Both the position numbers and the translations under genes were made by a program. Positions 12,565-44,502 of a stretch of DNA of 64,000 nucleotides are shown in pieces. Numbering within the stretch: position 1 is the first letter of the stretch; the number at the start of each line of letters is the position of its first letter. The notes beneath the pieces are model-generated. The model had not been told where the DNA came from and ran no database searches. It was given only the letters and a program-made list of their open reading frames with translations. The DNA lies in the NCBI RefSeq assembly GCF_000142905.1, contig NW_013657635.1, positions 121,853-185,852 on the forward strand, written 5' to 3'. The DNA comes from Thecamonas trahens ATCC 50062. Taxonomy: Eukaryota; Protista; Apusomonadida.

Positions 12565-15011
12565 ATGGACGGCTTCCTCGACGGACAGGTCGACTGTGGT
12601 CCCGGGGGCAATGCCCTGTCACAGATGATGGACGCCGTGACCGGGGGGCAGGCAAGGACATTGTATGTGTGCATCTTCCGTGTGGACGGTGTGTGTGGTG
12701 GGGGGGGGGGGGGGAGGGGGGGCAGGAGTGGGGGAGGGTGGGGAGGGTGGACAGGTCGCACACACTCAGTGGGATGGTGGGGATGGTGGGGGGCGGGGAC
12801 GTGGGGTCGGGGGGACAGGGTATGGGAGGGGGGGGGCAGGATGGGGAGGTGGGGAGGGTGGACAGGTCGCACACACTCATGGGATGTGGGGATGTGGGGG
12901 CGGGGGACGTGGGGTCGGGGGGACAGGGTATGGAGGGAGGACATGCGCAGGCTGCGGCACAGGCACAGGCGCAGGCGCAGGCGCAGGCTGTGGCACTGGC
13001 TGAGGCGCATGCACGGGCGGCTGGTGGTGGCGGTGGAGGCGGTAGTGGTGGTGGTGGTGGTGGTGGCCTCGCCGGCCCGCCGCTGCCGGCTGGAGCGATG
13101 GGCGCAGTGGGTGCGGGGGCTGGCTTTGATGCCGGCGAGTTCTACTCGCAGCAGCAGATGGAGGCGCTGTGGCGGATGCAGGCAGCGGCAGCGGCTCAGG
13201 CGCAGGCTCAGGAGAGTGCGCAGGGCGCGGTAGCGCAGGGCGGGGGACGAGCCAAGCCCGCGCCCGGGCTGGGCATGGGCCCGATGGCCGGGATGATGGG
13301 CATGGGCCCGATGGCTGGGATGATGGGCATGGGCCCGATGGCGGGGATGATGGGCATGGGCCCGATGGCAGGGATGGCGGGTGTGGGCCCACAACAGATG
13401 CTGATGGGTGGTGGCGCTGCTGCTGCGGCGCCGCAGTCGCACATTGCGTCGCTCTTTCAGCCGTCGGCAGCGCCACAGCGCCCGGCACCGCAGCCGGTAG
13501 ATGAGGCCCTCGCCGAGGAAAGCGGCGAAATGGCAAGTGAGGCGCCGCAGGACTCGTGGACCCGGCAGTTTATCAATGAGCGCAACCAGACGCGGCTTGC
13601 CGAGCACGACATCTCGACCGACGAGCTGCAGCAGCTGTCGCGGGCGGTTGTGGACGGAATTGAAGACCCGCGAGTGAAGAACTCGGACCTCATCAAATTC
13701 CTCAACAAGGTCGCTGACGGCTCTGTCCGCTTTGAAGGCGGCGAGATGGTGACCGGCGAGGCGACTGGCGCGGCGGCGGCGAGCACGGCGGCGACGCCTG
13801 CCCTGGGCGCGGCGGCGACGCCGAAGTCGGCAGCGGCACTTGTCGACAACCTGCTTGCCAGACATGCTCCGGAGAGCTCTGTGAACGCAGCTTCGGAAGC
13901 AGGCGCGGTCGAGGCGGAGGCTGCGGCTGCGGCTGCAGATGCGACAACGCCGGCCGAGGCAGCGGAGGCAGAGGCATCAGCGTGGGGCGCAGCGGCGGCG
14001 GCGGCCAAGGGCTACCACTTTCAAAAGACCAACCCGTACCTCGCGTCGCAGGCCGAGACGCCGGCCGAGATGAGCGCGCTGGAGCGCGGGATGGAGCTGC
14101 TGAAGACCGGCAACATCGCTGAAGCCATTCTTGCGTTTGAGGCTGCGGTGGTGGAGGACGAGTCGTCGCTGGCGTGGCAGATGCTTGGCCTCTCGCACGC
14201 AGAGAACGACAAGGACTACTACGCGGTGCTGGCGCTGGAGCGGGCGGTGGCGCTCGACGCGCACAACAACGAGGCGCTGATGCACCTTGCGGTGGCGTAC
14301 ACCAACGAGTCGAACCGGGCCAAGGCGCTCGAGGTGCTCGAGCAGTGGATCCGGCAACACCCCGAGTACCGCCACATCGACTTTGACTCTGTGTCGTCGG
14401 CCGACCCGTTTGGGGCATCCGAGGCCGACACGGCGGGCATGCCGGATCTCTCGGACCCTGCCGAGGTTGCGTTCTACCAGCACTTTACGGCGTACTGGAA
14501 GTCGTCGCTCGAGTCGCACGCGAGGGTCACCAACATGTTCCTGGAGGCTGTGCGGTCTAACGCGTCGTCCGGAGCCGGGCTCGACGCCGATGTCCAGGTC
14601 GGCCTCGGCATCCTGCTTAATCTCTCGCACGAGTTTGACAAAGCTGCCGAGTGCTTTGCCGCTGCGCTGCAGTCTCGACCGGACGACTACATGCTGTGGA
14701 ACAAGCTCGGGGCGACGCTCGCCAACTCGTCACGGTGCGAAGAGGCGCTCGACGCCTACCATAACTCGCTGCTGATCAACCCGTCGTATGTGCGGGCCAA
14801 GGTCAACATGGGCATTTCCTGCTCGAACCTCAAGGACTTTGCCGCGGCCGCCGTCCACTACCTCGGCGCGCTGACCATGGAGCCGCGGTCGCAGGCCGAG
14901 CACATCTGGCACCTGCTGCGGATGTCGCTCGCGCTCATGGACCGCGAGGACCTGGTCAAGCTCAGCTACGAGGGCAACCTCGACGCGTTCCGGGCCCACT
15001 TTCACTTTTAG
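12565..15011 (+). CDS. PEX5: Peroxisomal PTS1 receptor PEX5, spliced (exon 1 from 12565 to 12651 or 12662; exon 2 from about 12927)
   Basis: Exon 1 MDGFLDGQVDCGPGGNALSQM carries the conserved N-terminal Cys. Also WxxxF (WTRQF), a PEX7-binding-like NSDLIKFLNKVADGSV segment, YHFQKTNPY, and TPRs with LWNKLGATLANS and YVRAKVNMGISCSNL. Confidence 0.95.
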
Positions 15012-16891
15012 CTGCTCGCGGTTGCTGGCCCGCGGTCGAGTGGGAGCCAGTCGTCGGCCCAGAGCTCGCCGTCGTATCGGCCCAGCAGATGCGGGGCGAC
15101 CGAGGGCACGCTCGGCTCGTCGGCGGCACCGGGCTGGTGCGCCAGCAGCTCGGCGAGCTGAGCGGTGGCACGCTCGCCGCGGGCGGCAGGCGTGTCTGAG
15201 AGCTCGCCACGACGGACTGCATCCATAACCTCGGCCATGGTCATGCGTGCCTCTGCGGTGCTTTCCATGCCGTCGTCGAAGAGCTCGGTGTACGAGCGCG
15301 GGTAGCGGAGGGCGGCGCGACCGCCGGCGGCGGCCGTTGCTGCAGCTGCAACCTCGTAGAAGGTATGTGCGCCGGTTGGGACGAGGAAGGCGAGCGAGGC
15401 GGCGCGGATAAGAGCGGGCGCGACCCGCGGTGCTATGAGGCCGCCAAAGGTCATGTACCGAAGCGTGCAGCCGGAGACGCCGGTGACGAGCGGGATGCCG
15501 AGGTTGGCCAGAACGCGGACGGTCTTGTTTGCGGCGATGAGGGTGCACAGCCGCGCAGCGTCGATCCAGGGCACAGCGAGTGGGCCGTGCGGCGACTCCA
15601 GTTGCTCCTCCCAGGCGGTGAGCGAGCCGCCGACTGCGGCAAAGGCTGCGCGGGAGGCATGTGACCATGCATCGCGCTCGCTGACGCCTGTGGCAGCGCG
15701 CATGGCGTTCTGGGCGCGGGTGAGCCTGTGGCGGGTCATCCGGGCCAGCTCCTCGCCGGACGGATAGTCTGCGCTGTGGAGCTTGGCCAGCAGCTCGAGG
15801 TCCCAGCCGCAGCGCGTCGCAATGTCGTTGAGCGCGGCATGCTCGAGGGAGACGAGGTCGGGCGCGAGGATGCGGGTGATAAAGCAGTGAAAGTGGGTGA
15901 GGAGTGTGCGGACGGTGTCGGCGTCGGGCACCACGCGGGTATCGCCCTCCCACACGGCGCGGAGGCGGGCTGGATCTGCGCCGACCCGGCCGGAGAACGG
16001 CAGGTCGAGCGGGGTGGCGGTGAGGGCGAGGAGCTCGTCGAGCGGTGGGCCGATCTCGGCTCGCTCCTTCATGTAAAGATAAGCGGCGTCGCGGATGGCG
16101 ACACACGCGTCGCGGACCATCGAGTGGGCTGTCAGCGCGTTGCAGACTCGCTGCTCATAGCTTCGGCGGAGCTCGCACAGCGTCGACGCAGCGGCCCCGG
16201 CGGCAGCGCGGGAAGCCTCAACGTCTTCCATCTCGGCGGCGGCGTCCCCGATGGGCGGGACGGTGGCTTGATGAGCGTCGGGTGAGGTGGCGTCGACGAC
16301 CGGCAGCCGCTGCACGCCGACAACCTCGTGCAGGTACAGCCCGTCGAGGACGACCTGGGCGTTGACGCCATGCGGCGGCGGCAGCGTGTCGATGAATATG
16401 GCCTCCCACGAGCGCTCGATGTCGCAGTGCGGAACGTCTGGATCGGCGGCATCAAGCGGGCGGCCGTCGGGCGAGACCGGAAAGCCGTAGAGAACGCTCT
16501 GATCCCAGGCAGCAAAGTCGGAGACGAGCAGGCGATCGGGCGGGATGCGGGCGTGGATGACGACGCTGGGCTCTGTGGCGGGATAAGTAGGCGGAGAGAG
16601 CCAAGCCCAGAGCGGATAGTTGAGCGATGCAGCGGGAATGCGGCGAGCCATGGCGGCGATCATCCACTCGTAGCCGGCGGCAAACGAGTCAAAGCCGTCT
16701 TGGCTTGGAATGGCCTCGGCGGCATCGCCAAAGACCACGCCACGATTGCGAAGCAGCTCCCACACAGCGTCAACCTGCTGGGTGTAGACATCGACTAGCG
16801 GCGGCTCTGGTGGCCCTTCTCCTCCTTGAGACGGGCTGTACGAGGTGTTTGACGCCATGGGGAGTGGTACGGGCTCTCCCTTGCTAGCCAT
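15008..16891 (-). CDS. DUF3841-like N-terminal domain fused to an S-HxxxE (LnaB-like AMPylase/toxin-type) C-terminal domain
   Basis: N-terminal VYTQQ..VWELL, AGYEWMIAAMARRI, YPLWAW, LLVSDFAAWD, IERSWEAIF. C-terminal IPLVTGVSGCT...LAFLVPTGAHTFYEV. Confidence 0.65.
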   Translation of the reverse strand: MASKGEPVPLPMASNTSYSPSQGGEGPPEPPLVDVYTQQVDAVWELLRNRGVVFGDAAEAIPSQDGFDSFAAGYEWMIAAMARRIPAASLNYPLWAWLSPPTYPATEPSVVIHARIPPDRLLVSDFAAWDQSVLYGFPVSPDGRPLDAADPDVPHCDIERSWEAIFIDTLPPPHGVNAQVVLDGLYLHEVVGVQRLPVVDATSPDAHQATVPPIGDAAAEMEDVEASRAAAGAAASTLCELRRSYEQRVCNALTAHSMVRDACVAIRDAAYLYMKERAEIGPPLDELLALTATPLDLPFSGRVGADPARLRAVWEGDTRVVPDADTVRTLLTHFHCFITRILAPDLVSLEHAALNDIATRCGWDLELLAKLHSADYPSGEELARMTRHRLTRAQNAMRAATGVSERDAWSHASRAAFAAVGGSLTAWEEQLESPHGPLAVPWIDAARLCTLIAANKTVRVLANLGIPLVTGVSGCTLRYMTFGGLIAPRVAPALIRAASLAFLVPTGAHTFYEVAAAATAAAGGRAALRYPRSYTELFDDGMESTAEARMTMAEVMDAVRRGELSDTPAARGERATAQLAELLAHQPGAADEPSVPSVAPHLLGRYDGELWADDWLPLDRGPATASS

Positions 16892-16950: not shown

Positions 16951-17078
16951 GGGGTATGGTGGGGTATGGTGGGGTATGATGGGGTATGATGGGGTATGAT
17001 GGGGTATGATGGGGTATGATGGGGTATGATGGGGTATGATGGGGTATGATGGGGTATGATGGGGTATGATGGGGTATG
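16951..17078. repeat. 10-bp tandem repeat (ggggtatgat), about 13 copies, in a divergent promoter region
   Basis: Directly visible. Confidence 0.97.
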
Positions 17079-17174: not shown

Positions 17175-17885
17175 ATGGGCGCAAGTGCATCCCGCCTGAC
17201 AAAGGCTGCCGGAGAGGTCGCTGCTGTGGCCGAGAGCCGGGCTGGAGAGGCCCGCGCCGCCGCCCGCGCCGCCGAGTCAGCCGCCCGTGCCGCCAAAGAC
17301 GCCGCCGCCATTGCCGCCCAGAACGCTGCTGGTGCGTCGGACAGAGCTAGAGCCGATCCCGGGAGAGGAGCGAGCGTAGGCAAGGACGCCGAGGACGATC
17401 TGGATCGCCCGAGCAGAGAGGCGACCGATGATGCCGCGCTGCTGGCCAACATGGCAGCGTTGGAGGTGGAGGCTTACGTGGACACAAGCGTCAACGCCCA
17501 TCGCCATACGCCCGAGGCCGTGGCCAAGCGCCAGGCGGAGGCTGCAAAGGGCGGACGCCCGCTGCCGCAGTCGCGCCAGGCCTCGCCATCGCCTGGCGAG
17601 CTGTGGGGCGGAGTCCGTGGCAACGCCGTCACCCCGGGCTTCCTCAACGAGAACCAGCTCCGTGCCCTCCTCTCCGAGGACCTCGCCGCCGCCGACATCG
17701 ATGCCCTTGCCACAAGCTACCGCCTCAACGCAGACTCGCTCGCCGCGGTCATCAAGCACCACGCCCTCTACGAGCCCATCCCCGACGAGGACGGCACCCT
17801 CCGCGGCTACTGGGTCGTCCCGCCGCTCTCCCCCAAGCAGCAGCTACTCCTCGACGAGGTGCGCAGCTTGAATGAGCAAAGATAG
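17175..17885 (+). CDS. NDUFAF4: NDUFAF4-like complex I assembly factor
   Basis: N-terminal MGASASR (myristoylation-type), RPLPQSR, and PGFLNENQLRALL...IDALATSYRLNADSLAAVIKH follow the NDUFAF4/UPF0240 pattern. Confidence 0.65.
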   Translation: MGASASRLTKAAGEVAAVAESRAGEARAAARAAESAARAAKDAAAIAAQNAAGASDRARADPGRGASVGKDAEDDLDRPSREATDDAALLANMAALEVEAYVDTSVNAHRHTPEAVAKRQAEAAKGGRPLPQSRQASPSPGELWGGVRGNAVTPGFLNENQLRALLSEDLAAADIDALATSYRLNADSLAAVIKHHALYEPIPDEDGTLRGYWVVPPLSPKQQLLLDEVRSLNEQR

Positions 17886-18284: not shown

Positions 18285-21200
18285 ATGGCAGTCTCCTATG
18301 ACGACGAGGATGCACTGACCAACATCATGGCTCCACAGGCGAGGGCCGTTGACGACGGCGACGTGGTCATGGTCGTCCGGACTGCTGGCGGAGTCGGCCG
18401 GGCGGTGCGGAGCTCCCAGGTTCTAACATCGTCGTCGCTGGCGCATGATTCGGGCGATGCGGCTGCTGCCCAGCGAAAGGAGGCGGCGCGGAACGAGGAA
18501 AATGGCGACGTGATGCTTGATGATGCGGTTGTCACCGGTCCGGCCCTCCCCAAGCCCAGATCGACGCTCGGGAGGCACGTGACCGAGTCGCTGATGACCC
18601 TCACTATCGAGGTTTTCGATCGCCATCCCGTCACCGGAGTCGAGGCGCTCTTCATCTCGCGCAAGCTGCAAGAGGTCGACCCCTTGTGGACCGTCAATCA
18701 GCTGGCAGATGTCATCAACGAGTCCATCCTCCACTCGGACCCTACCAAGACGCCCGAACAGGGATGGGCTGTCTTTCGCCCTGGGACGCCGAGGACGACG
18801 GCCTCGGCCGTGCAGAGAATGTTGCCAAGCACCTCGACATCGACTTTGTCGCAAAGTACCTACAGGGCCCGCGGACACTCAAGTTTTACTCCATCAAGAC
18901 CCGCTCACGCTTGCACTACAAGATGCGCCGCCGTGCTGTCAAGTTCCACATCTTTGGCTCCTTACGCACCGTCCTCATCGATGAGTCGTGGCGCGTCTAC
19001 CGCATCGTCAAGGAAATCGGCTCCGTCCTCGGCCTCCGCGCCCCTGACGAGTACTCGCTCAAGGTCGAGGACGACCCGCACCACCCCGAAAAGCACTGGC
19101 TTCGCGGCGCGCAGACCCTGCCGGAGCAGCGCATTCCGCTCGATGTCACCTGGGACTCGGCCGGCGAAGAGGTGCCGCCGCCAGTCCTCCACTTTAAGAA
19201 GAAGCTCTTCTTCAAGCACACGCCCAACTTTGATCCAACCAACCCCGAGGCCATGTTCATCTACTACCAGCAGTGTACAGCCATGGTCCTCTCGTGCGAG
19301 CTCTACACCTCGCGAACCGAGGCTGTCCTCTTTGCTGCCCTCCAGCTCCTCATCCGCGACTCGGGCTACAACCCGCAGTTGCACGACCTCCCGGGCTTTG
19401 TCAAGCGCTGGTCTGACTGCTGCCCCGCCCACGTCATCCCATCCAAGGCCAAGGCCAAGAGCCGGCTAGAAGACGCGGTCCGCTCTACCATGCACCGATT
19501 CAAGGCCTACTCGCGCGAGCAACTCATCGTCAAGTACGTTAAGCTCTGCCGCGCATCCAAGTTCTTCGGCTGGGCCAACTGGCCCATCAAAGAGCAGGTC
19601 CGCTCCGGCCGCAAGTATCGCTTTGTTGCCCGTGTCCTCTCCATCTCGGGCAAGGGCGTGCGCTTGCTTGATCCGGCCAAGCACAACGACGTCGTCGTCA
19701 GTCATCCATGGACAGAGGTCGTCGCTGTCGGCGGCATCACCATCAACCGCGGCTTTGGCCTCATGTTTGACTTTTCCCGCGGCAACGCTCTCCGCATCCA
19801 GGTCCAGATGGAGGACCAGACCGCGCTCACCGAGGCCTCGCAGTATGTTGCAGACTACATGCGCATGATGGTCCTCCTCGAGCGCAACAAGAAGAAGCGC
19901 CTGGCTCAGGCCCGTGACGATGTTTGGGGCCCGCTTGCGGTCGGCTTCCAGATGCCTCCAGCTCACCAGCGCTCCGGCCGCATCCCGGCCTGCTCTGCGG
20001 GCGCAAAGTCGGTCGTCGCCTCGATGCAGCTCGCCATGCTCGACGACGAGGCGCCGGCCTCCGCTGGCGGTGCCATTGTCCCTGACATTCCTAAGCAAAA
20101 CGTGCCCATCGTCGACCACGAGACCGATGAGACTGCCGCCGTCGGCGCCGTCTCTACCGTTGCCTCGACTCTCAACAAGTCGGCCGCCGCAAGCAGGGAT
20201 CTCCACACTACCGTCATTATGGACGACGACGACATCGCAACCAAGACGACCCATGACAAGTCGTGGGATGTCATTGCCCTCGACTCGGACGACGACAACG
20301 AGATATCCAAGCTCCTTGCTCAGGCCGATGCCCAAGACAACGTTGCCGTCCTCTCGGCCTCGCTCGCCGTCTCGACCAACGAGCTCCTCCATGCGTCGGC
20401 GCTCGACGACCCGCTTATGATCGACCCGTCTGCCCTACTCGCCGCAGCCCAAGGCCTGGCCGACATGCTCGCCTCGCTGACCGAGGCCACTGCCACAGCA
20501 GCCGGTGTTGCCGCCTCCCCCGAGACCGCGCACGCCCTCGCTGAGGCCCACAAGTCGGTCCAGTCCTCAACCGCAGGCCTGGTTGCGGCCGCCACTGATG
20601 TTGCGGCTGCCGCCGTGGACCACCACGCCAAACTCGCCACCTGCAAGTCGGATGATCCCAAGGAAGATCTCATGGCCCTGTACGAGATCACCGACTCGGA
20701 CTCAGGCTCGGACTCAGACTCGAACGACTCGGAGGATGGTACTCAGGAGGGGAACGCGACTGCCGCAGGCGCGAGCGACGGTCTCCGCTCTCGCGAAGCC
20801 AAGCTCAAGGCTGCCACCGCCATCGACATCTCCAGCCTCATGGCCGCCGCATCCCAGGTCGGCAGCTCGGTCTCGGGCCTGCTGGCCACCTCGGGCGTCG
20901 CTACCTCGACCGAGCGCCAAGTTGAACGCCTCGGTCGCATGGCAGAAGCCGTCACCGAGGCTGCGCTCGACCTCACCGACGCCTGCATCAACTTTTTCCC
21001 GGATGAGCTGCCGCTCACCGAGGCCGCCATTCTCGAGCGCCGCCTCTGCTCGCTCGGCCGTTTGGTCGCCAGTACGAGTCGATGGTCCGCGCCTCGGCGC
21101 CTAACATCAAGGTGCCGGACGTCCACAACTCGCTGCTGGTCAAGGGTGCCCAGTTGCTGGAAATGATGCGCATTGCAACTGGAGCCATCCCGGCTCACTA

Positions 21201-24200
21201 TGCTGCCAAGTTTGAGCTCGGCCTCACCGCCTATGAGGCCATGGCCACCCTCTACACCACCCTCGAGCACATCAACGACCGACCTGACTTCCACGATGAC
21301 TACGCGCGCGTTTTGCAAGAGCTCCGCTACCACCTCAATTTGCTCAAGGATCGTACTGTTGCCCAAGACGCCACCCGCCTTGACATGTACGTCACCTACA
21401 TTGGCGAGCTCGCTACCGAGCTCGGTACCATCATCGAGACTGAGGCCGAGGCCTGTGACGTTAATGGCTCATGGGCCGCCCTCGAGGCCGAGGCTGGCGA
21501 CTTTGCTCGTGCCGTCCTCGCCCTTCAGGACATCGCTGCGAGCGTGGGCGAGAACCCCGACACCTCCGGCATTGCACGCCTCAAGACCGAGACCTGTGAT
21601 GTGCTCGACGCGCTCGACTCGATCCACGTCTCACGGGCGCACTTGTTTGTGATTGAGGACGTTCTCGACGCATCTGCACTGGTCCTCGGCCACATGCGTA
21701 GTGTTCTTGACGCCGCCACCGATCTGCCGCTTCTCGCCTCTGATGATGGCGAGCGGATGCTGTTCGAGGCCAACCGTGCCATCGACCGCCTCTCGACCAC
21801 CATGCGCATTTACTCGGTCAATCCGAGCAATGTCAGGCACCAGGACATAGCCATGCAGGCTGCGCGCAAGGCCGTCCGCAAATTTGGTGCACTCCTCGAT
21901 GGCATCCTCGTTCCGCTCGGCGCCGCCATCGCCGAGGGCTCCAAGCTCTCAGCATCCGACGACGGAGCGCTTCTTGCTGCCGAAGTTGCCCACGGCTCAC
22001 TCGCCCAGCTCAAAGAGGCGCTCTCCGTCGCCGCCATCGACTGCTGGCCGCTTGATGTCAACTCTGCTATCCAGGTCATCCACAACGAGATCCAGGCCAT
22101 CAACGCCGCGCTAGACAAGGTCGCCGATCCGAGCGTCGGGCTCAACCCTGCCCCCGGTGACCATCATTCGGAGTTTGAGTGGCAGGCCGAGCTGCTCCGC
22201 TCGGTCCGCTCCATCCCCAAGGAGGTTACCGACATTCGCGACACCGCCATGACGCTGACTCCGGCCGAGTTTGCGCTCGACTGCAAAGACGTCGCCGCCG
22301 AGGTCACCATCCTCGCTGAGGCCTCCATCGGCATGGCCTCGTATTCGACCACCCGTCAGGCACAGTACTCGCTACTCACCGCCGCCCGTGCCTTTTGCAC
22401 CGACGCCATCGAGCTCATCGAGTGCGCCCAGACCGTTGTCCGCGAAGGCAATGACCCGTACGGGTCCGAAACTGCAGTGGCTGCTGCGCTCGCCCTTGTC
22501 CTTTCCGCCCTCGACGAGCTCATGCTCTGCATTCCAGGCATTGGCGACACTCGCCGCCTCGTCCGCAAGCTGGAGGGCGAGGCAACTGAAGTCTCTTCCC
22601 AGATCCGCCTGGCGTCGCAGCCCAAGGTGGCCCAGTTTGGCGACCTCGCTTCGGCGGCGTCGGACCTCGCCTCGGCACTCGCCGCGCTGGCGGACATTCC
22701 GGCAGCAGCTCCGTCACCGCTCACCGGCCTTCAGGCGAGCACGTCCTCGTCGGGCCGCCGCGGATCAATCATGGCCACATCGGGACTGGCTGCACTGGCG
22801 GGCGAGTCGAGCACGTCTGTCCAAAAGGCCGACACCTCGCCGCTGGCCATGATGGAGCAGGAAGTGTCTGCCGCTGGCCGAACACTCGCGGCGTTGGTCT
22901 CATCGCTCGACCGCGCGGCGCTGGCCTCACCGTCGGCGCTGGCCCACGCTGTCTCCCGAGTCAGTGCCATGGCCGACGTTATCTACCGCGCCGCCGCGGC
23001 ATCGGTCGCCACTCCTGAGCTCGCCGACAGCGCTCAGTCCATCAATGCTCCACTGCTCTCGCTGCTGCAGTCGACGCTCGTCGCGCTTCGCGACGCTGCT
23101 GACATTGCTGTCGATCCGACCGACGATGAAGCTCGCGCTCGCTTCCGGCAGAACGACGTTGCTGGCTCCATCGCCACCCTTCACATGACGTACAAGGAGC
23201 TAGCGGCACCGAATCCAGAGGCGCAGTCGAAGGAGCTCGACAAGGCGCGGACCATGATTGACGGCGCCTTGGCAAAGCTGGCTTCCTACAAGGACGATTG
23301 TTCTGGCGGCAACGAGCTAGCTTCTGTCGACGACAGCGAACAGGACGTTCCTGTGGCCCAGGCCGCGCTGGAGCTGCAGGATCGAGTGCTGGCTTCGACT
23401 GCCGAGCTTCAAACGGCGTCACAGGCTCTGGCCAATGTGGCCGAGGTCTCGCCTGATGACTACGCCTCGGCCGTCTCGCGTGTCGGCCTCCTCACCACCA
23501 AGACCATCAACTGTGTGCTGGCCACGGCGCAGCATCTCAAAAGCAGCGTGGCAGCCAAGGCGGCAGCCAGCGCGGCAAAGCATGCTGTCATCTTTGGTGC
23601 CAAAGTGGTGGAGAAGGACGTGGCGCTGGTGGCCCAGGCGTTGTCTGGGCTCTCGGGCGTCGACCCGCACAAGGGCGCGCTACTCACCCGCGAGACCCAG
23701 CACCTGACCGCGGCGACACATGATTTGCTCATCCACAACAAGCGCGTCTTACGCAAGCTCCCTCTTCAGGACAAAGCCAAGCGACAGCGGGTCCAGCGAT
23801 GGGGAGCTTCGCTCAAGGCCGCCGAGCGTGCAGTGCGGCGGGCGTCCAAGGTGCTGCGGCTCTCTCCAGACTCGGACCGGGCCAACGAGGCGCTCAACGT
23901 GCGGGTCGCCGAGTTTTCGGCCGCGCTCGCCGACTATGTCGAGTACATGGGTGTTCTCGAGCTGGCCGAGTACGACCACGCTGCGGCGGTGGTCGCCAAC
24001 ATCAAAGATGCGCTCATCGACGAGACCATCGAGGTCGCGAACCTGCAGACCTCGCTGCTGGTCACGTCGCAGCTGGTAGTGGCCAACCCGACCCACGCAG
24101 CCGCGCACCGCAACATGACTGCAGCGCTCGGTGAGTCGGTGCGGGCGCTTCAATCGCTGCACGAGACGGCCGCGCTTGTCTCGCCGGGCCAGAAGGAGTG

Positions 24201-26967
24201 CGTCTTTGCGATCGATCACGTCGAAAAGTGCGCCCAGCACATGCAGCGGTTCCTGGCGCAGTTTGCCCGCGACGCGCTCCCACCGTCAACGACCTCGAAC
24301 TATGGCAAGTGCCTCGACCGCCTGCTGGCCCACCTCAACGTGCTCGAGGCCGCGGCATCCGAGCTGGCCACACAGGCGACGAGCTCGGCAGAGGGTCTCG
24401 GTGCCGCGGCGCTGCACTTTGCCGAGCTCGCGGATCCGCTGCGGGTCCTGTCCCTCGACGCTGCAGTAACGTGCGGCTCGGCCGAGCTCGGCCTTCGGAT
24501 TTTGCGCGAAGCGCGCGACATCCCACTGCAGGCGGTGCCGTTTGTCAAGGCCTGCCAGACATGCCGTGGAGGCGCGGTGCCGGCTGACGTGGCCGACGAA
24601 GCCACACCAGCGGCACTGCTTCACCTGTTCCAGGTCGAAATTCATGAGCTGCGGGAGGTGCTGGAAGCCGATCGCGCCGAGCGGCACTCGCTGGCCACAC
24701 TGCGGGCGTTGGTGGAAGCGTCGAATGCCAAGCTGGCAGCCGCTGCTACCACCAGGCATGATGGCGAGCGGCCACGTGGACCGCGACTGACATACGGCAA
24801 GTACGTGGCCCGGATCAAGGCCGCCTTTGCAGACTTTCTTGTGGTCATCAAGAAACTGGTGACCATGGCAAACGCGCACGCCAAGCGCGATGCGGTGCTC
24901 GAGGACGAGGAGTTGGCTGTGTTTGGAGTCCACGCAGCGGCCCTGGGCAAGGTCTTCCCACCCATTGTGGATGAGGTCGCGGGTTGCATTGCCGTGACCA
25001 GCGACAAGAAGCTCCAGGACGTGTTGGCTCAGGCCGGCGCAGATGTTGGCACCCAGCTCCTCGCCTTTGTTGATGAACTGATGGCGCTGCAGGCCCGCGA
25101 CGTCGAGGCAAGTGCAGTTGTGAGCGCCTCTTCGGGAGTTTCAATTGCACTGGCACGCTTGCTCCAAACCGTTGGCCGCGGTGAGACCCCGAAGCGGGTG
25201 TTTGAGTCAGCCTGTTCCGAGATGGCGGCGGCGACGAGCTCGCTGCGAACAGCAACCTACATCCTCAACGCGGTCGATCAAGACGAAGTCGGTGAGGCCG
25301 AGAGCCTCGAGAGCGGAGACCGCGGCGGTGCCGACGAGCAGCCGGCAACGTTTGGTGAGTGCATGGTCGAGGTGGCTGCGCGACTCCGCGAGTCGCGAGG
25401 CCAGGTGGCGACAGCGCTTGCAGCCAACAAGATCGACGACGAGAGCGCGGCTGTGGTGGCGCGCGAGGTTGCACGCCGCCACGAGGCGACCATGGCCACG
25501 CTCAGCTTTTCGCTATTGCTCCTTACCTCGGTCGCTGAGCGCAATCGGGTGGCCGAGGTGGGAACTGACGCGGCGAAGGCGCTTGAAATGGCGCTGCAGC
25601 TATTGGGGAGCAAGAACCACGCTGCGGGCGCGAGCAAGGCGCTGGCGGCGGTCGACAAGGCATTGGGAGCAGTGGAAAAGGCGGCGGACGAGTGCGGACA
25701 CGCCGAGGCTCAGGCCCGCGACGAAGTGGTGGCGATGGCAGCCGAAGTGGCCGCAATCCGAAGCGATGCCGTCAAGCTGGCAAGCGGGTACGCGAGTGGC
25801 AGCTCTCAGGTCTATCTTGTGCAGGTGGTCGACGCGCTCAAGTTTGGGCGGCATCTGGTGCAGAAGCTGCTGTACGAGTCGGAAGCGCTTGTCTGCAAGC
25901 CACTCAAGCTTGTGGGCGAGGTCCGCAGAGTCGTTCGCAACTACGCCGAGACGGTGACCACGCTTGGCGAGGCGCAGTGCTGGCTAGCGTCTGACGAGCA
26001 CGCGACGGCTGTTGCTGATGCCTTGACTGTGCTGGGTGGGGCGGTGGAGGGAGTAGTCGGCAAGGTGTTTGACGGTGACGAGGTGCGGTCGCGGATGGCG
26101 ACAGCGCATGCGACATCGGCAACGCTGGCGATGCGGGCGCTGACGACCACCCAGTATGGACCAGTGCGGCTTGCGGCCGACGAGGCGATCGCAGCCGCCG
26201 CCGCAGTTTCCAAGCGAGCCAGCATGGCTGGCGGCGAGAGCGGTCTCGCCGGCGGAGACTCGGACGCAGTCTTTGCGGCTGAGTTACAGGCGCTCGTCGA
26301 TGAGATGGAAAAGGGCAAAGTGGTCCTTGCCAAGATCCACCTTGCTGGTGACGGCGGGACTGAGGTTGATGTGGAGCGGGAGAACTTCAAGTCGATTGCG
26401 CTGCGGTGCTGTGGTGAGATGGCCGATGCATGTGTGACGCTCGCGCGGGTGGTGGTTATTGCGTTGGAGGAGACGATGCCGTCCGACGAAGAGCGCGAGG
26501 AGCTACTCATTGCGCTTTATGCGGTGAGCGCGGCAGTGACCCAAATGACCACAGCCATGGTGCTGTTTAGCGAGGGCGCACCGGCCAAGGCGCTCAGCAG
26601 GGCGGTTTCGGTTGTGTCCGAGGCGGTGATGTCGTTGGTGGCCGACGCGCTCCGTGAGCGGACCCAGTCTGCAGCCGCAGGCTCGGTCCGCAAGGCGGCA
26701 TCAATGGTGGGCTCGGCGTGTGCCACGCTCTTGCAGGCAGTCGAGGTCTACACCACGCCGGCGAGCAAGATGGTGCGGGAGGATGTCAGCAACGCAAGCG
26801 GAGGCGCCAGCGGCGGTCTCGCACTCGCCGGCGCCACCTCGGCCGAGGCCGCAAACGTCTCGGAGATGATCCGCCGCAAGGCCGAAATCGAGCGGCTCCA
26901 GCGTGATATCCAGACGCTGAAAGAGAACAAGGTGCGGCGGCGGGCTGCCGCAGCCGGAGCGCGATGA
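18285..26967 (+). CDS. TLN: Talin-like protein (FERM head plus helical rod, about 2,890 aa); apparent frameshifts at about 18780 and 21062
   Basis: FERM F0-F3 motifs: LRTVLIDESWRV..IGSVLGLRAPDEYSL, WLRGAQTLPEQRI, LHFKKKLFF, YVKLCRASKFFG. Rod motif SPGQKECVFAID (cf. talin APGQKEC). C-terminal dimerisation-like helix EMIRRKAEIERLQRDI. Three consecutive ORFs join by single-base additions in homopolymers. Confidence 0.85.
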
Positions 26968-27049: not shown

Positions 27050-28927
27050 ATGGGGCGATCGCGGCGTGGGCGGAGCGGGGTCAAACCCAAACGAGCGAGA
27101 TGGTCAGTGTGGCGGTACATGGCTGTGATCCGGAGTCTACTTGCGGTTGTACTGGCATACACGGCGTGGCGCGGACTGCAGCGTGCCGGATGGACGTGGG
27201 GCGTGTCGTCCTTTCACCCGCGAACGGTGGGCTCCTGCGACGGATGTCCGGGTGGAAGCGGAGCCGGGAGCGAGAAGCGGGCAGGCGAGGCGTGCGGCGG
27301 CATGCTATGCGCGGTGGTGAACATGCTGACATGGCGCATGAGCTCGTGTCCTTCTCGGTTGGCCCTCTCGCCGAGCACCATGGCCTCGGTGGTGGCCGGC
27401 GAGATGCTGATGCTGCTGGCGGCGGCGGCGACGGCCGGGTGGGCGGCGGTGCGGGGAAGCCAGGAGGCGCTGATGGGCAAGGTCGAGCGGTGGTCCTGGG
27501 GCCTGGCTGGCCTGGCCATGGCCTGGCTGTTGGTCCAGGACGTGGCCATGTACAACAACCATGAGTACCTGTACGCACTCCTCGCCGTTGTCTTTGCCCT
27601 TGGCGGCGACAGCGAGATGGCGGCCGAGGCCGAGGCTCTCGCCATCGCTGCCCTCTGCGCCACTGTTTACGGCTGGGCCGGCCTGATCAAGGCCACCACG
27701 CCTGAGTGGCGGGAGGAGGTCCTGGCCGCCCAGCTGATCATGAGCCCGGACGTACTGGTGCCGCTGCGGACGGTGCTGGTGCCGTCGGTGGCTGTGACGG
27801 CCGGCGTCGCCTGGGGAGGCCTCCTACTGGATCTGGTGTGGGCGCCGGGCCTCGCGGTGCTGTTTATGGCCTCGCGATGGAGCGAGCCTGCCGCAAAGGT
27901 GCTGAGTTGCGGGCGATGGGCGGGCTGGACGGTGGCGTCGCTGCCGATCGTCGGCTTCCACGTGGTGAACAAGCTGACGCTGCCGATCGGCGAGTTTCCG
28001 CTGACGATGGTCATCCTGCACGCGGTGCAGCTTGCGCCACGACCGCCACGACCGCTGCAGCTGGGCGAGCGCCTGCGCGGACGGGCAGCTGTGCTGGTGG
28101 CGCTGTTGGTGGTCGTCAACGTGGTGGCGGGCATACAGCAGTCTCGGGCGGACTTTTGGCGGCGGGAGGAGACTCGGTTCGGGTGGATGATGATGATGCG
28201 CGCGACGTCGCGGCCGTACTTGGAGCTGGGATGGGAGGACGTTGAGACGGGCCAGCGATGGCGACACGACCCGGTTGCGAGGGAGTGGACGACGTTGCGA
28301 CAAGCTCGCAAAATGGCGTTTGACCCGGCGATACTGCGAGCGTATGCGGTTTACGCTGAGGCCGAGATGGCGGCGCGAAGCGGGCGGCGCGTGCGGCTGG
28401 TGGTCCTCGAGTCGTGGGCGGGCGTCAACGGCTCCCCGCTGCAGCGCTTCTACTCACACAGGGGCCGACCAGTGCTCAAAGTGCCGAGAGACGACTTTGT
28501 GTCGCAAGCGATTAGTGCGTACGACAACAGTGAGAGCCGGGGCATGATGCTGGGAGCGTTGCGCGCGGCTATGCTGCGCCAAGCCGGCAAGCCGGTCTTT
28601 GTGGCGCTGGAGGCCGGCGACGGGCCGCGAGTGGTGAGGTTTTCAGTTGACTGGGCCGGCGAGGACTGGTCGAGTGGGGCGGATGTGCTGCAGGCCTGCG
28701 GTCGGGATGGCGTGGCCTGGATAGGCGGCGCGCGGGTGGGCAGCGGCGAGTGTGTTGCGCTGGCAATGGAGTTGCCGCTGGAGTTGTGGGCGGAGAGCAA
28801 GTCGGCGTTGGTCGAGTTTGGGTGCGGCACGACGTGGCTCAACTTTGAGCCTGTGGTGATCGACAGCACGACTGGGTTTGAGCTCGATGCGAACGATGCC
28901 GAGCTACTCGCCGCCGTAAAGGATTGA
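27050..28927 (+). CDS. HTTM-domain / vitamin K-dependent gamma-glutamyl carboxylase-like membrane protein
   Basis: YNNHEYLYALL (GGCX WNNHSYLYGLL), VYGWAGLIK, FHVVNKLTLPIGEFP, RFGWMMMMR and WAGVNGSPLQRF occur in GGCX/HTTM order. Confidence 0.85.
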   Translation: MGRSRRGRSGVKPKRARWSVWRYMAVIRSLLAVVLAYTAWRGLQRAGWTWGVSSFHPRTVGSCDGCPGGSGAGSEKRAGEACGGMLCAVVNMLTWRMSSCPSRLALSPSTMASVVAGEMLMLLAAAATAGWAAVRGSQEALMGKVERWSWGLAGLAMAWLLVQDVAMYNNHEYLYALLAVVFALGGDSEMAAEAEALAIAALCATVYGWAGLIKATTPEWREEVLAAQLIMSPDVLVPLRTVLVPSVAVTAGVAWGGLLLDLVWAPGLAVLFMASRWSEPAAKVLSCGRWAGWTVASLPIVGFHVVNKLTLPIGEFPLTMVILHAVQLAPRPPRPLQLGERLRGRAAVLVALLVVVNVVAGIQQSRADFWRREETRFGWMMMMRATSRPYLELGWEDVETGQRWRHDPVAREWTTLRQARKMAFDPAILRAYAVYAEAEMAARSGRRVRLVVLESWAGVNGSPLQRFYSHRGRPVLKVPRDDFVSQAISAYDNSESRGMMLGALRAAMLRQAGKPVFVALEAGDGPRVVRFSVDWAGEDWSSGADVLQACGRDGVAWIGGARVGSGECVALAMELPLELWAESKSALVEFGCGTTWLNFEPVVIDSTTGFELDANDAELLAAVKD

Positions 28928-42505: not shown

Positions 42506-44502
42506 CTACGCCTTGCCTAGCCGCTGCTCCAGCGCTGCCAGTCGGGCTGCCCGCATTTCCTCCACGGTTGGTGGCTGGACCGCTGCTGGAGCCGGCGCCG
42601 CGGCGGGTACCGCGCCTGCGTCGCTGGCCTGAGCGGGAGCTGCACCGCTTGATCCGGCGCCCGTCTCGCCGAGCCGGTAGCCGTGGCCGGCAAAGGCGTC
42701 ATCGCTGACACTGCTGCTGCCGCTACCGCTGCTGCTGCTACTGTCGTTGCCGCTATCGTTGTCGACGTGAGCTGTGGCGCCAATAACACGGACAGGCTCG
42801 TGCGAGGCGGGTGGGAGCGGGGCTGGGTCGGGCGCTTGGAGCGCAGCGGCACCGAGGTCGACGTCAAAGCCCGAGTCGGCGACGAGGTCGACTTCGACGT
42901 CGGTGTCGATGATGCACACACCCTCGTAGTGGGTCTTGTCGTTGGGCAAGACGGCAACAACCAAGAGATGGAACTCGAGACCTCCGAGCTCGAGGCGGAT
43001 CGAGTCGCCGACGGTGAGAGTGGCAAAGCCGCGGAAGAGCGTCTCCAGCTTGGTCTTTTGGTCGTAGAGTTTGAGAAAGAGCGGATTGTCAACCTTGATC
43101 TTGACGTACTCAGCCCGCGGCAGAGCGACGCGACGGATGCTGACTATGTCATCCTCGTCCAGCCCCAGCTGGTCCATCCGCCACCGCGGCGCGTACATGA
43201 TGTCGGGCTCTTCGGTAAACTCGAGGACTGAGCAGTGTGTGTAGCGCCCGTCGGAGTCGTTGGTGAGCCGGAAGATCCACGGCATGTGGTCGGGCTCGTT
43301 CTCGCCCTCCAGCACGTGCAGTACATCTTCTGGAAGCAAGACCTTGCCACCGGACTCGAGCTCCGGACGCGCCCGTAGGGCTACTGACCGAATGCGGAGC
43401 GTGCTTTCGTACTTGCGCGCAGCGCGGTGCCGCGCCATAGCATCTGCCAGCGCCTGCGCCATTGACGCCTCCACCGCATCGCGGTTGAGCGGCGTGTCGT
43501 CGTACGGCGCTGCCGGAGGCGGAATGTACCGCGCCGGCATCGTTGGGTGAAAGTCGGGAAACGGATCGGCGAGTCGCGGCAGACCTGCAGGAGTCAGCAG
43601 CGACGACGGCGGCGGTGGTCTGGGCTCATCGTCGTCCATCATCGACATGGCCAACGCTTGAGCCAAGTCTCGGTCAACCTCAGGATCGGAGACTGCGGCC
43701 GGCGGCGGCGGCGAGTGCGACAGAGCGGTAGGCTCGGAGGGAGTGTCAGCCATTGAGAGCGAGGTGGCCATGGCAAGCTGCAGCTGCTCGTCTTCAGAGA
43801 GTCCCGGGATGCCGATGGTAGTACCCGAAGCGACCAGTGCCTCGGCCTCGGCGGCGGAGGCGTGCAAGGCCAGCCGCAGCTGCTCTTCCTCGTCGAGCGT
43901 ATCTGGCGCTGGTACGGTGACCAGCGGGCTGACGCCTCGACGTTGGACTGACGACGATGGAGGCGAAACCTTTGCCAACGACTCTGCTAGCGCCATCTCG
44001 AGGGCGACGTCCTCGGACACGCCGGACAAGACCAGGGCATCAGCGGCGGCAGCCTCGGCGCGGGCGTGCTTCTCGGCCACGCGACGGACCCGATCCTCGG
44101 CGGCAGCAACCGCCCGAGCTCGCGCACTCTGCCCTGAGCTCGGCGAAGGCTGAGGCCGGCGACGAGAGCCTCCACTGATGTTGGTGGAGGTGGGAGGAGC
44201 AAAGCGGTGCTCAAGACGCTTGACAGCGGCGGCGCGGGCGCGGGCCTTCATGGCCTCGTTTCGGCGCTTAGAGTCATCGTACTCGAGAGAACGCGCAGTA
44301 AAGAAGGAGCCCCGCCCTGGAGTTGTGGTAAAGTAGGCGATGCCGTCGACCGATCCGTTGTTCTTGCCCAGCCCGGCGCCATCGAGCTCGACGCCCACCA
44401 TCACGCCCTCAGTAAAGTGTGTTCTTCCCACAAACCTGACCACGCCACGCCGGTTGTCTACACGGACCCGTACACGATCCCCCGACGAAAGACAGACTCC
44501 AT
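42506..44502 (-). CDS. CAP-Gly + VIM + UIM repeats + UFD1 domain + SHP/VBM protein (putative p97/Cdc48 adaptor); apparent frameshift at about 44480
   Basis: CAP-Gly: VRFVGRTHF..GVELD..GKNNGSVDGIAYF. UFD1: LESGGKVLLP..THCSVLEF..LRRVALPRAEYVK..FATLTVGD..CIIDTDVEVD. SHP: FAGHGYRLG. Confidence 0.85.

Follow-up and report, generated by a model that had tools for sequence, protein, structure and literature searches.

The serine, histidine and glutamate of the S-HxxxE motif in Legionella LnaB are required for AMP transfer to phosphoribosyl-ubiquitin, a reaction for which actin is also needed (PMC11142304). Legionella SidL/Ceg14 cleaves ATP, yielding AMP plus pyrophosphate, and adenylates 3-phosphoglycerate, and the same three residues are needed for ATP cleavage (PMC12092593, PMC13431035). 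According to the LnaB paper, SHE members from outside Legionella AMPylate themselves, and whether eukaryotes use the motif is named there as an open question (PMC11142304). The MCF1-SHE domain, its clades, bacterial toxin fusions of SHE with ADP-ribosyltransferase (ART) domains, mimivirus L389 and three fungal NM1S-1 proteins are already published. Here we describe AMSG_09141 of the bacterivorous flagellate protist Thecamonas trahens ATCC 50062, whose product joins an N-terminal DUF3841 (PF12952) domain to a C-terminal MCF1-SHE domain, both of which occur mainly in bacteria. The gene, which is probably intronless, corresponds to an open reading frame (ORF) of 627 aa at 15008–16891 on the minus strand of the window, the 64,000-nucleotide stretch of contig NW_013657635.1 (positions 121,853 to 185,852) that was analyzed.

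The explanation we favor, with roughly even confidence, is that AMSG_09141 is an acquired bacterial gene that may encode a cytosolic AMP-transferring SHE domain with an ART-fold accessory domain. Because the copy is intact, host-ameliorated and found in a culturable free-living protist, the question of eukaryotic S-HxxxE use becomes directly testable.

The C-terminal MCF1-SHE domain

Homologue search and profile matches placed the MCF1-SHE domain, including an N-terminal helical extension, at about residues 235–545 (15257–16189, minus strand). Its triad consists of S473 in a GVSG motif (15473–15475), H509 (15365–15367) and E513 (15353–15355), all on the minus strand, and 36 residues separate S473 from H509. 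A preliminary description of the gene had quoted these and other motifs with their coordinates, and all of them are present. A phmmer search with residues 215–590 against 1.84 billion representative proteins gave 65 matches at E ≤ 0.001, consisting of the query itself, one false repeat match and 63 others. The false match, P0012, has fibronectin repeats and was dropped. An alignment of 45 sequences (A1; counts include the query) was built with 44 of these 63 matches, most of the long proteins being left out. S473 is conserved in 44 of the 45 rows and both H509 and E513 in all 45; the other near-invariant columns are E428, W442, G471 and L503 (44/45 each). The loose pattern S.{25,60}HxxxE appeared in 56% of 5000 shuffles of the protein, so the case for an S-HxxxE domain rests on family conservation; the strict pattern G[IVL]SG...H[ST]xxE appeared in 0.02% of them.

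The A1 profile aligned with a protein of the Pseudomonas syringae plasmid pDC3000A (hhalign 97.1%, E 7.5e-11, 262 columns), with the triad residues in register. The matched gene is annotated as "hypothetical", and an ADP-ribosyltransferase gene lies directly upstream of it; we take the protein to be HopT1-1. A1 also matched the chains 8p50, 8p51 and 8p52 (E 0.0021) over GISG...HSFFE, residues 777–859 of the protein, again with the triad aligned. These chains are Mcf1 (PMC10716152), and both HopT1-1 and Mcf1 are named as MCF1-SHE members (PMC3482391). On the evidence of these alignments, the C-terminal domain is a member of the MCF1-SHE (S-HxxxE) superfamily with an intact triad, as the preliminary description had proposed.

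The same description had called the domain LnaB-type and actin-activated, labels that reach further than the evidence. The six PDB matches of A1 at E ≤ 10 included no LnaB or SidL chain, although no direct sequence comparison was made. By name, its nearest relatives come from Myxococcota and proteobacteria, where the SHE domain is either standalone or part of a polymorphic toxin; close relatives with names include proteins of Pseudomonas putida, Luteibacter, Stenotrophomonas, Crinalium and Streptomyces. In one Myxococcota phylum set, 26 of 401 genomes encode the domain, frequently toward the end of a long frame. This placement at the C-termini of long Myxococcota proteins, together with an eCIS_core domain in 3 of 64 SHE matches, would suit a secreted or prey-directed toxin acting on engulfed bacteria or competitors. 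However, hydropathy shows neither a signal peptide nor a membrane segment in the 627-aa protein (maximum 19-residue value 1.55 over the whole protein and 0.42 toward the N-terminus, with no hydrophobic leader), and Pfam finds no delivery domain in it. We regard a secreted toxin as very improbable, and the term effector used in the preliminary description is not supported. Separately, a myxobacterial SHE gene is followed by a run of genes resembling helical repeats, which are possible immunity genes (L006, 4703–5818 and 5845–6891).

A quick tree of 86 SHE domains grouped the query with P0004, P0008 and P0009 (support 86), and P0057, P0049 and P0041 joined this branch with support of 92. In the bolder reading considered below, the branch as a whole may represent a wider eukaryotic clade. 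The tree places the SHE proteins P0041, P0049, P0057 and P0043/P0075 close to the query; three of them lie on contigs that barely exceed the gene, and all may be protist transcripts. P0041, P0049 and P0043 have long C-terminal regions without annotation, where P0043 shows a weak leucine-rich repeat match.

As to its chemistry, several points weigh against AMP transfer by this domain. In a single-sequence AlphaFold model of the full protein, the SHE region was helical, with helices after the triad, but had a predicted local distance difference test (pLDDT) score of 36, unusable for triad geometry. Not all SHE proteins adenylate proteins, as no such activity was seen with LegK4 and Lpg0209. The SHE superfamily also takes in PAP2 phosphatases and haloperoxidases, a peptidase role for MCF1-SHE was proposed in 2012 (PMC3482391), and the present subfamily is too far from LnaB and SidL for a profile match. 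An active SHE domain might instead work on a metabolite or lipid as a PAP2-like phosphatase or phosphotransferase, or be a serine peptidase. Against this, the SHE proteins with measured activity in the cited papers all use ATP, and we consider such other chemistry distinctly unlikely.

The N-terminal DUF3841 domain and its predicted fold

The Pfam DUF3841 profile matched residues 35–136 (E 2.5e-12; 47.3 bits against a gathering cut-off of 27), which agrees with the family first named for this region. The match covers profile positions 2–106 of 178, and the remainder can be aligned up to Q179. An AlphaFold model of the domain (residues 33–197; 16301–16795, minus strand), made with 18 relatives from search matches, had a pLDDT of 85, a predicted TM score (pTM) of 0.80 and six main strands. 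VIA-align, run against 48,161 chains, ranked first DarT (Z 6.8; root-mean-square deviation [rmsd] 3.9 over 129 aligned residues) and CC0527 (Z 6.7; rmsd 3.1 over 92), followed by Mycobacterium tuberculosis DarT (6.5), TreX (6.4), PltA (6.1), and then Tpt1 and scabin. Judged by title or known fold, the best 50 rows were all ART-fold chains, and identity in the top rows was 2–15%. Foldseek likewise placed CC0527, DarT and Tpt1 first, at E 0.14–0.4. A search of a viral library gave one unnamed match (E 9e-6). From this model, the DUF3841 domain is predicted to have an ART fold, and the resemblance suggested earlier from its first strand and helix is supported. With middling Z values and Foldseek PDB E values above 0.1, the call is consistent, not high-scoring.

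By strand order, T37, W95 and Q179 on strands 1, 2 and 5 fall at the positions held by H/R, Y/S and E in ARTs. Among the DUF3841 rows, T37 is threonine in 16 of 19 and serine in 3, and W95 and Q179 are present in all 19. The canonical H-Y-E or R-S-E residues appear to be absent from the expected strands, as placed by strand order. Tpt1 is among the active ARTs that have no catalytic glutamate. The two fused DUF3841 copies, in the query and in P0004, differ from 19 standalone proteins in having a loop of 24 aa instead of 30–37 aa; both have also lost the arginine of a PxxR motif, present in 16 of the 19, and the histidine after DFxxW, present in 18 of the 19.

The reading of this domain as a degenerate ART-fold module has to meet several points on the other side. 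Fifteen chains reached a VIA Z of at least 5 and none reached 8, the tool's own bar; Foldseek against PDB gave no match at E ≤ 0.001; and the placement of T, W and Q comes from strand order, not from superposition of residues. In addition, Q179, Y74, W95, W97, F126, W129 and W162 are invariant in the 19 rows and could mark a live active site. With such a site, DUF3841 would be an atypical NADase or NAD+-using transferase whose site is T-W-Q and which acts alongside the SHE adenylyltransferase, as happens in bacterial toxins that combine SHE and ART. This is in essence the two-enzyme protein of the preliminary description. The predicted fold itself is compatible with this, and nucleic acids are the substrates of DarT and Tpt1, the folds closest to it. 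Table S1 of PMC13431035 contains many fusions of SHE with Tox-ART, and the pDC3000A arrangement sets an ART gene beside a SHE gene. Nevertheless, the canonical residue sets are missing from the expected strands, the fused copies have lost the PxxR loop and the conserved histidine, and no described activity of any DUF3841 protein was found in the literature searched. The ART-like part of the Mcf1 N-terminal effector (aa 1–912), which cannot be split, is moreover reported neither to bind NAD+ nor to ADP-ribosylate (PMC10716152). Two live enzymes are thus unlikely in our judgment, if still worth considering.

Standalone DUF3841 genes were also seen on viral contigs (L049–L067, L094–L108) and on plasmids (L047, L048), and this occurrence fits a role in biological conflict.

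Distribution, gene structure and genomic setting

Within the sequences searched, the DUF3841-SHE fusion is known from two proteins only. The second, P0004 (552 aa, on a 10.7-kb contig), aligned to the query in both domains with 34% identity over 546 columns. Its N-terminus matched profile A6, which includes the query, at E 3.5e-8 and Pfam DUF3841 at E 0.021. In a quick tree, the DUF3841 domains of the two fusion proteins paired with support of 93 on long branches. The quick SHE tree, by contrast, did not pair the two proteins; the standalone P0009 joined P0004 there (support 82), a point against the explanation we favor.

Apart from the query and P0004, no SHE match carried DUF3841. Comparison of 40 SHE loci with 37 DUF3841-profile loci, many of them near-duplicates, gave no shared locus, so this limited sample showed no precursor operon in bacteria. 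Viral scans found no further fusion. A metagenome scan gave three loci, one being a SHE gene and two chance matches, and no fusion. Neither the eight SHE loci of a genome scan nor a further set of 26 loci showed a DUF3841 match, nearby in the former case. DUF3841 was found in none of five SHE-bearing genomes and exceeded the cut-off in 1 of 401 Bacteroidota genomes.

The NCBI protein model of AMSG_09141 has 524 aa and begins at the second ATG; an alternative start ATG of the 627-aa frame lies at 16858. The NCBI model is reproduced when a 43-nt GT-AG stretch at 15251–15293 (minus strand) is spliced out, but this is probably no real intron. Its removal would delete Y534, where the 44 other A1 rows have Y in 29 cases and F in 3, and for that reason the unspliced 627-aa reading is favored. 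The P0004 alignment extends up to residue 546 of the query. On these comparisons the long, unspliced form is the more likely one. Sequencing runs X6–X8 look like DNA (27–29 of 30 bins covered, splice joints absent), so they are unable to test the intron. Three 151-nt contigs matched in one marine metatranscriptome, a weak signal that is no proof of transcription.

The gene lies among eukaryotic neighbors, which by Pfam include a TPR gene, FERM and talin-rod frames, a kinase, a vitamin-K carboxylase domain, an importin, UFD1 and an F-box gene. The neighboring TPR gene is presumably PEX5-like. The GC content at third codon positions (GC3) is 0.79 in the fusion gene and 0.75–0.81 in six neighbor genes. 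Contigs from two other runs (one sample, DNA-like) cover 14700–15847 and 14700–15687 and join the TPR gene to the fusion gene. Four differences in low-depth contigs, read by hand, comprise three synonymous changes and V420L. Assembly contamination is unlikely as the source of the gene, and horizontal acquisition of the gene from bacteria is likely, as far as sequence comparison can indicate. The preliminary description had suggested an intronless gene of a eukaryote, acquired horizontally; this agrees with the eukaryotic setting, with the bacterial SHE relatives and with the 627-aa open frame, the lack of introns being probable. A non-functional relic of horizontal transfer, or a contaminant, would account for the single copy found and the long branches. 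However, the ORF and triad are intact, P0004 carries the same fusion, GC3 is host-like and the contigs above bridge the fusion gene and the TPR gene; a relic or contaminant is hardly probable at all.

Other searches with the protein added little. NCBIfam gave no matches; one word-index protein search matched AMSG_09141 alone and a second gave two matches, this search type being nearly blind; and tblastn with an in-frame query gave no match below E 1. ESM Atlas recovered DUF3841 at the N-terminal end but gave no credible match at the C-terminal end. PDB phmmer matches to AFX/FOXO4 and YEATS were rejected as tag-related or chance.

Several other features of the window were recorded. The stop codon of the fusion gene shares four bases (15008–15011) with the end of the convergent TPR frame, which ends at 15011. 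Just upstream of the gene, a 10-nt tandem repeat (16951–17078; 12.8 copies, 99% matches) lies in the short gap to a divergent frame that starts near 17175 and has no Pfam match. A 458-aa shadow ORF occupies 14730–16106 in a frame different from that of the fusion protein. On the plus strand, a talin-like gene (18686–26967) consists of two overlapping frames, with FERM_M in 18686–21166 and the talin rod in 21082–26967, and the frame at 27050–28927 carries HTTM and the vitamin K-dependent gamma-carboxylase lumenal domain, here in an apusomonad. A glycoside hydrolase family 28 gene (46366–47982, plus strand; E 6.8e-25) is a possible further horizontal acquisition. At 42506–44443 (minus strand), a single frame matches CAP-Gly and both UFD1 N-terminal subdomains and may be an unusual fusion or two genes. 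A weak A1 profile match at 61465–61827 (plus strand; E 0.011), opposite a 1202-aa frame, is probably chance.

Proposed mechanism and comparison with known systems

In the mechanism that we propose, this chromosomal gene of Thecamonas would be of bacterial origin. By analogy with the biochemistry of LnaB and SidL/Ceg14, its SHE domain, with Ser473, His509 and Glu513, would split ATP into AMP and pyrophosphate and, within the host's own cytosol, pass the AMP on to water or to an acceptor that bears a phosphate or a hydroxyl group. The strand order and lost residues of the DUF3841 domain suggest a nucleotide- or substrate-binding module and not a classical transferase. An actin-activated enzyme would be constitutive in its own cytosol, so control would have to come from elsewhere, and the fused, degenerate ART-fold domain is the obvious candidate, most likely as a sensor or substrate holder. 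Such an accessory role is paralleled by the Mcf1 effector, in which an inactive ART-like part and a SHE match form one unit. The biological role, which is speculative, could be defense against intracellular bacteria or viruses, or the turnover of phosphoribosyl or ADP-ribosyl adducts. In a bolder form, which we hold only tentatively and consider rather unlikely, a domesticated protist S-HxxxE enzyme and an ART-fold sensor or maker of ADP-ribose or phosphoribose adducts would make up a one-protein NAD/ATP defense switch.

The preliminary description had held the fusion to be undescribed. This stands for DUF3841, whose fusion was not found in print, but not for the broader pairing of ART and MCF1-SHE, which is common in bacterial toxins. 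No mention of DUF3841 was found in the literature searched, most subscription journals lying outside its scope. PF12952 was likewise not found paired with ADP-ribosyltransferase there, though an earlier ART assignment may exist, and neither name occurs in two supplement files of an ART survey. "Thecamonas" and "DUF3841" are absent from nine supplement files of PMC13431035, a paper whose table samples 925 domains.

The Thecamonas fusion retains Y74, PxWxW, DFxxW, W162 and Q179 of the DUF3841 family. Family members from bacteria and phages in the present searches are standalone proteins of 170–210 aa, from which the fused copies differ by their shorter loop without PxxR and by the loss of the conserved histidine. 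DUF3841, which occurs in bacteria and on plasmids and viral contigs, now gains a predicted fold. With DarT, Tpt1, CC0527 and TreX/TreTu, the domain shares the strand order of the ART fold (global superposition Z 5–6.8), whereas their canonical catalytic triad is absent from it.

On the SHE side, LnaB and SidL/Ceg14 (clade NM1S-2) have the same triad, but their S-to-H spacing is 44, compared with 36 in the Thecamonas protein, and no sequence-profile match connects them. The three rows of fungal NM1S-1 proteins (PMC13431035) place SHE outside bacteria in a different clade, and mimivirus L389 (PMC3482391) places it in a virus; the listings of both show neither DUF3841 nor ART. Classical-type MCF1-SHE members, such as HopT1-1, Mcf1 and myxobacterial toxins (PMC3482391, PMC13431035), share the serine and HxxxE in a helical context, and GxSG...H[ST]xxE with a spacing of 34–38 is common to most SHE relatives. 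The Thecamonas domain is likened to these members, although its clade could be classical or NM1S-5. Unlike classical-type SHE toxins, the protein is chromosomal in a protist, has no secretion or repeat domains and is fused to DUF3841. The Mcf1 N-terminal effector (8P50–8P52; PMC10716152) likewise holds an ART-like subregion and the SHE motif in one unit, but it is a 105-kDa region delivered by a large toxin, and its ART-like part resembles RhsP2/Rhs1. An ART fold is also paired with SHE in Mcf1, in HopO1/HopT1 and in toxins of actinobacteria. AMSG_09141 seems to represent a further origin of this pairing, with a different ART-like family, and such recurrence gives a hint that the two folds are linked in function.

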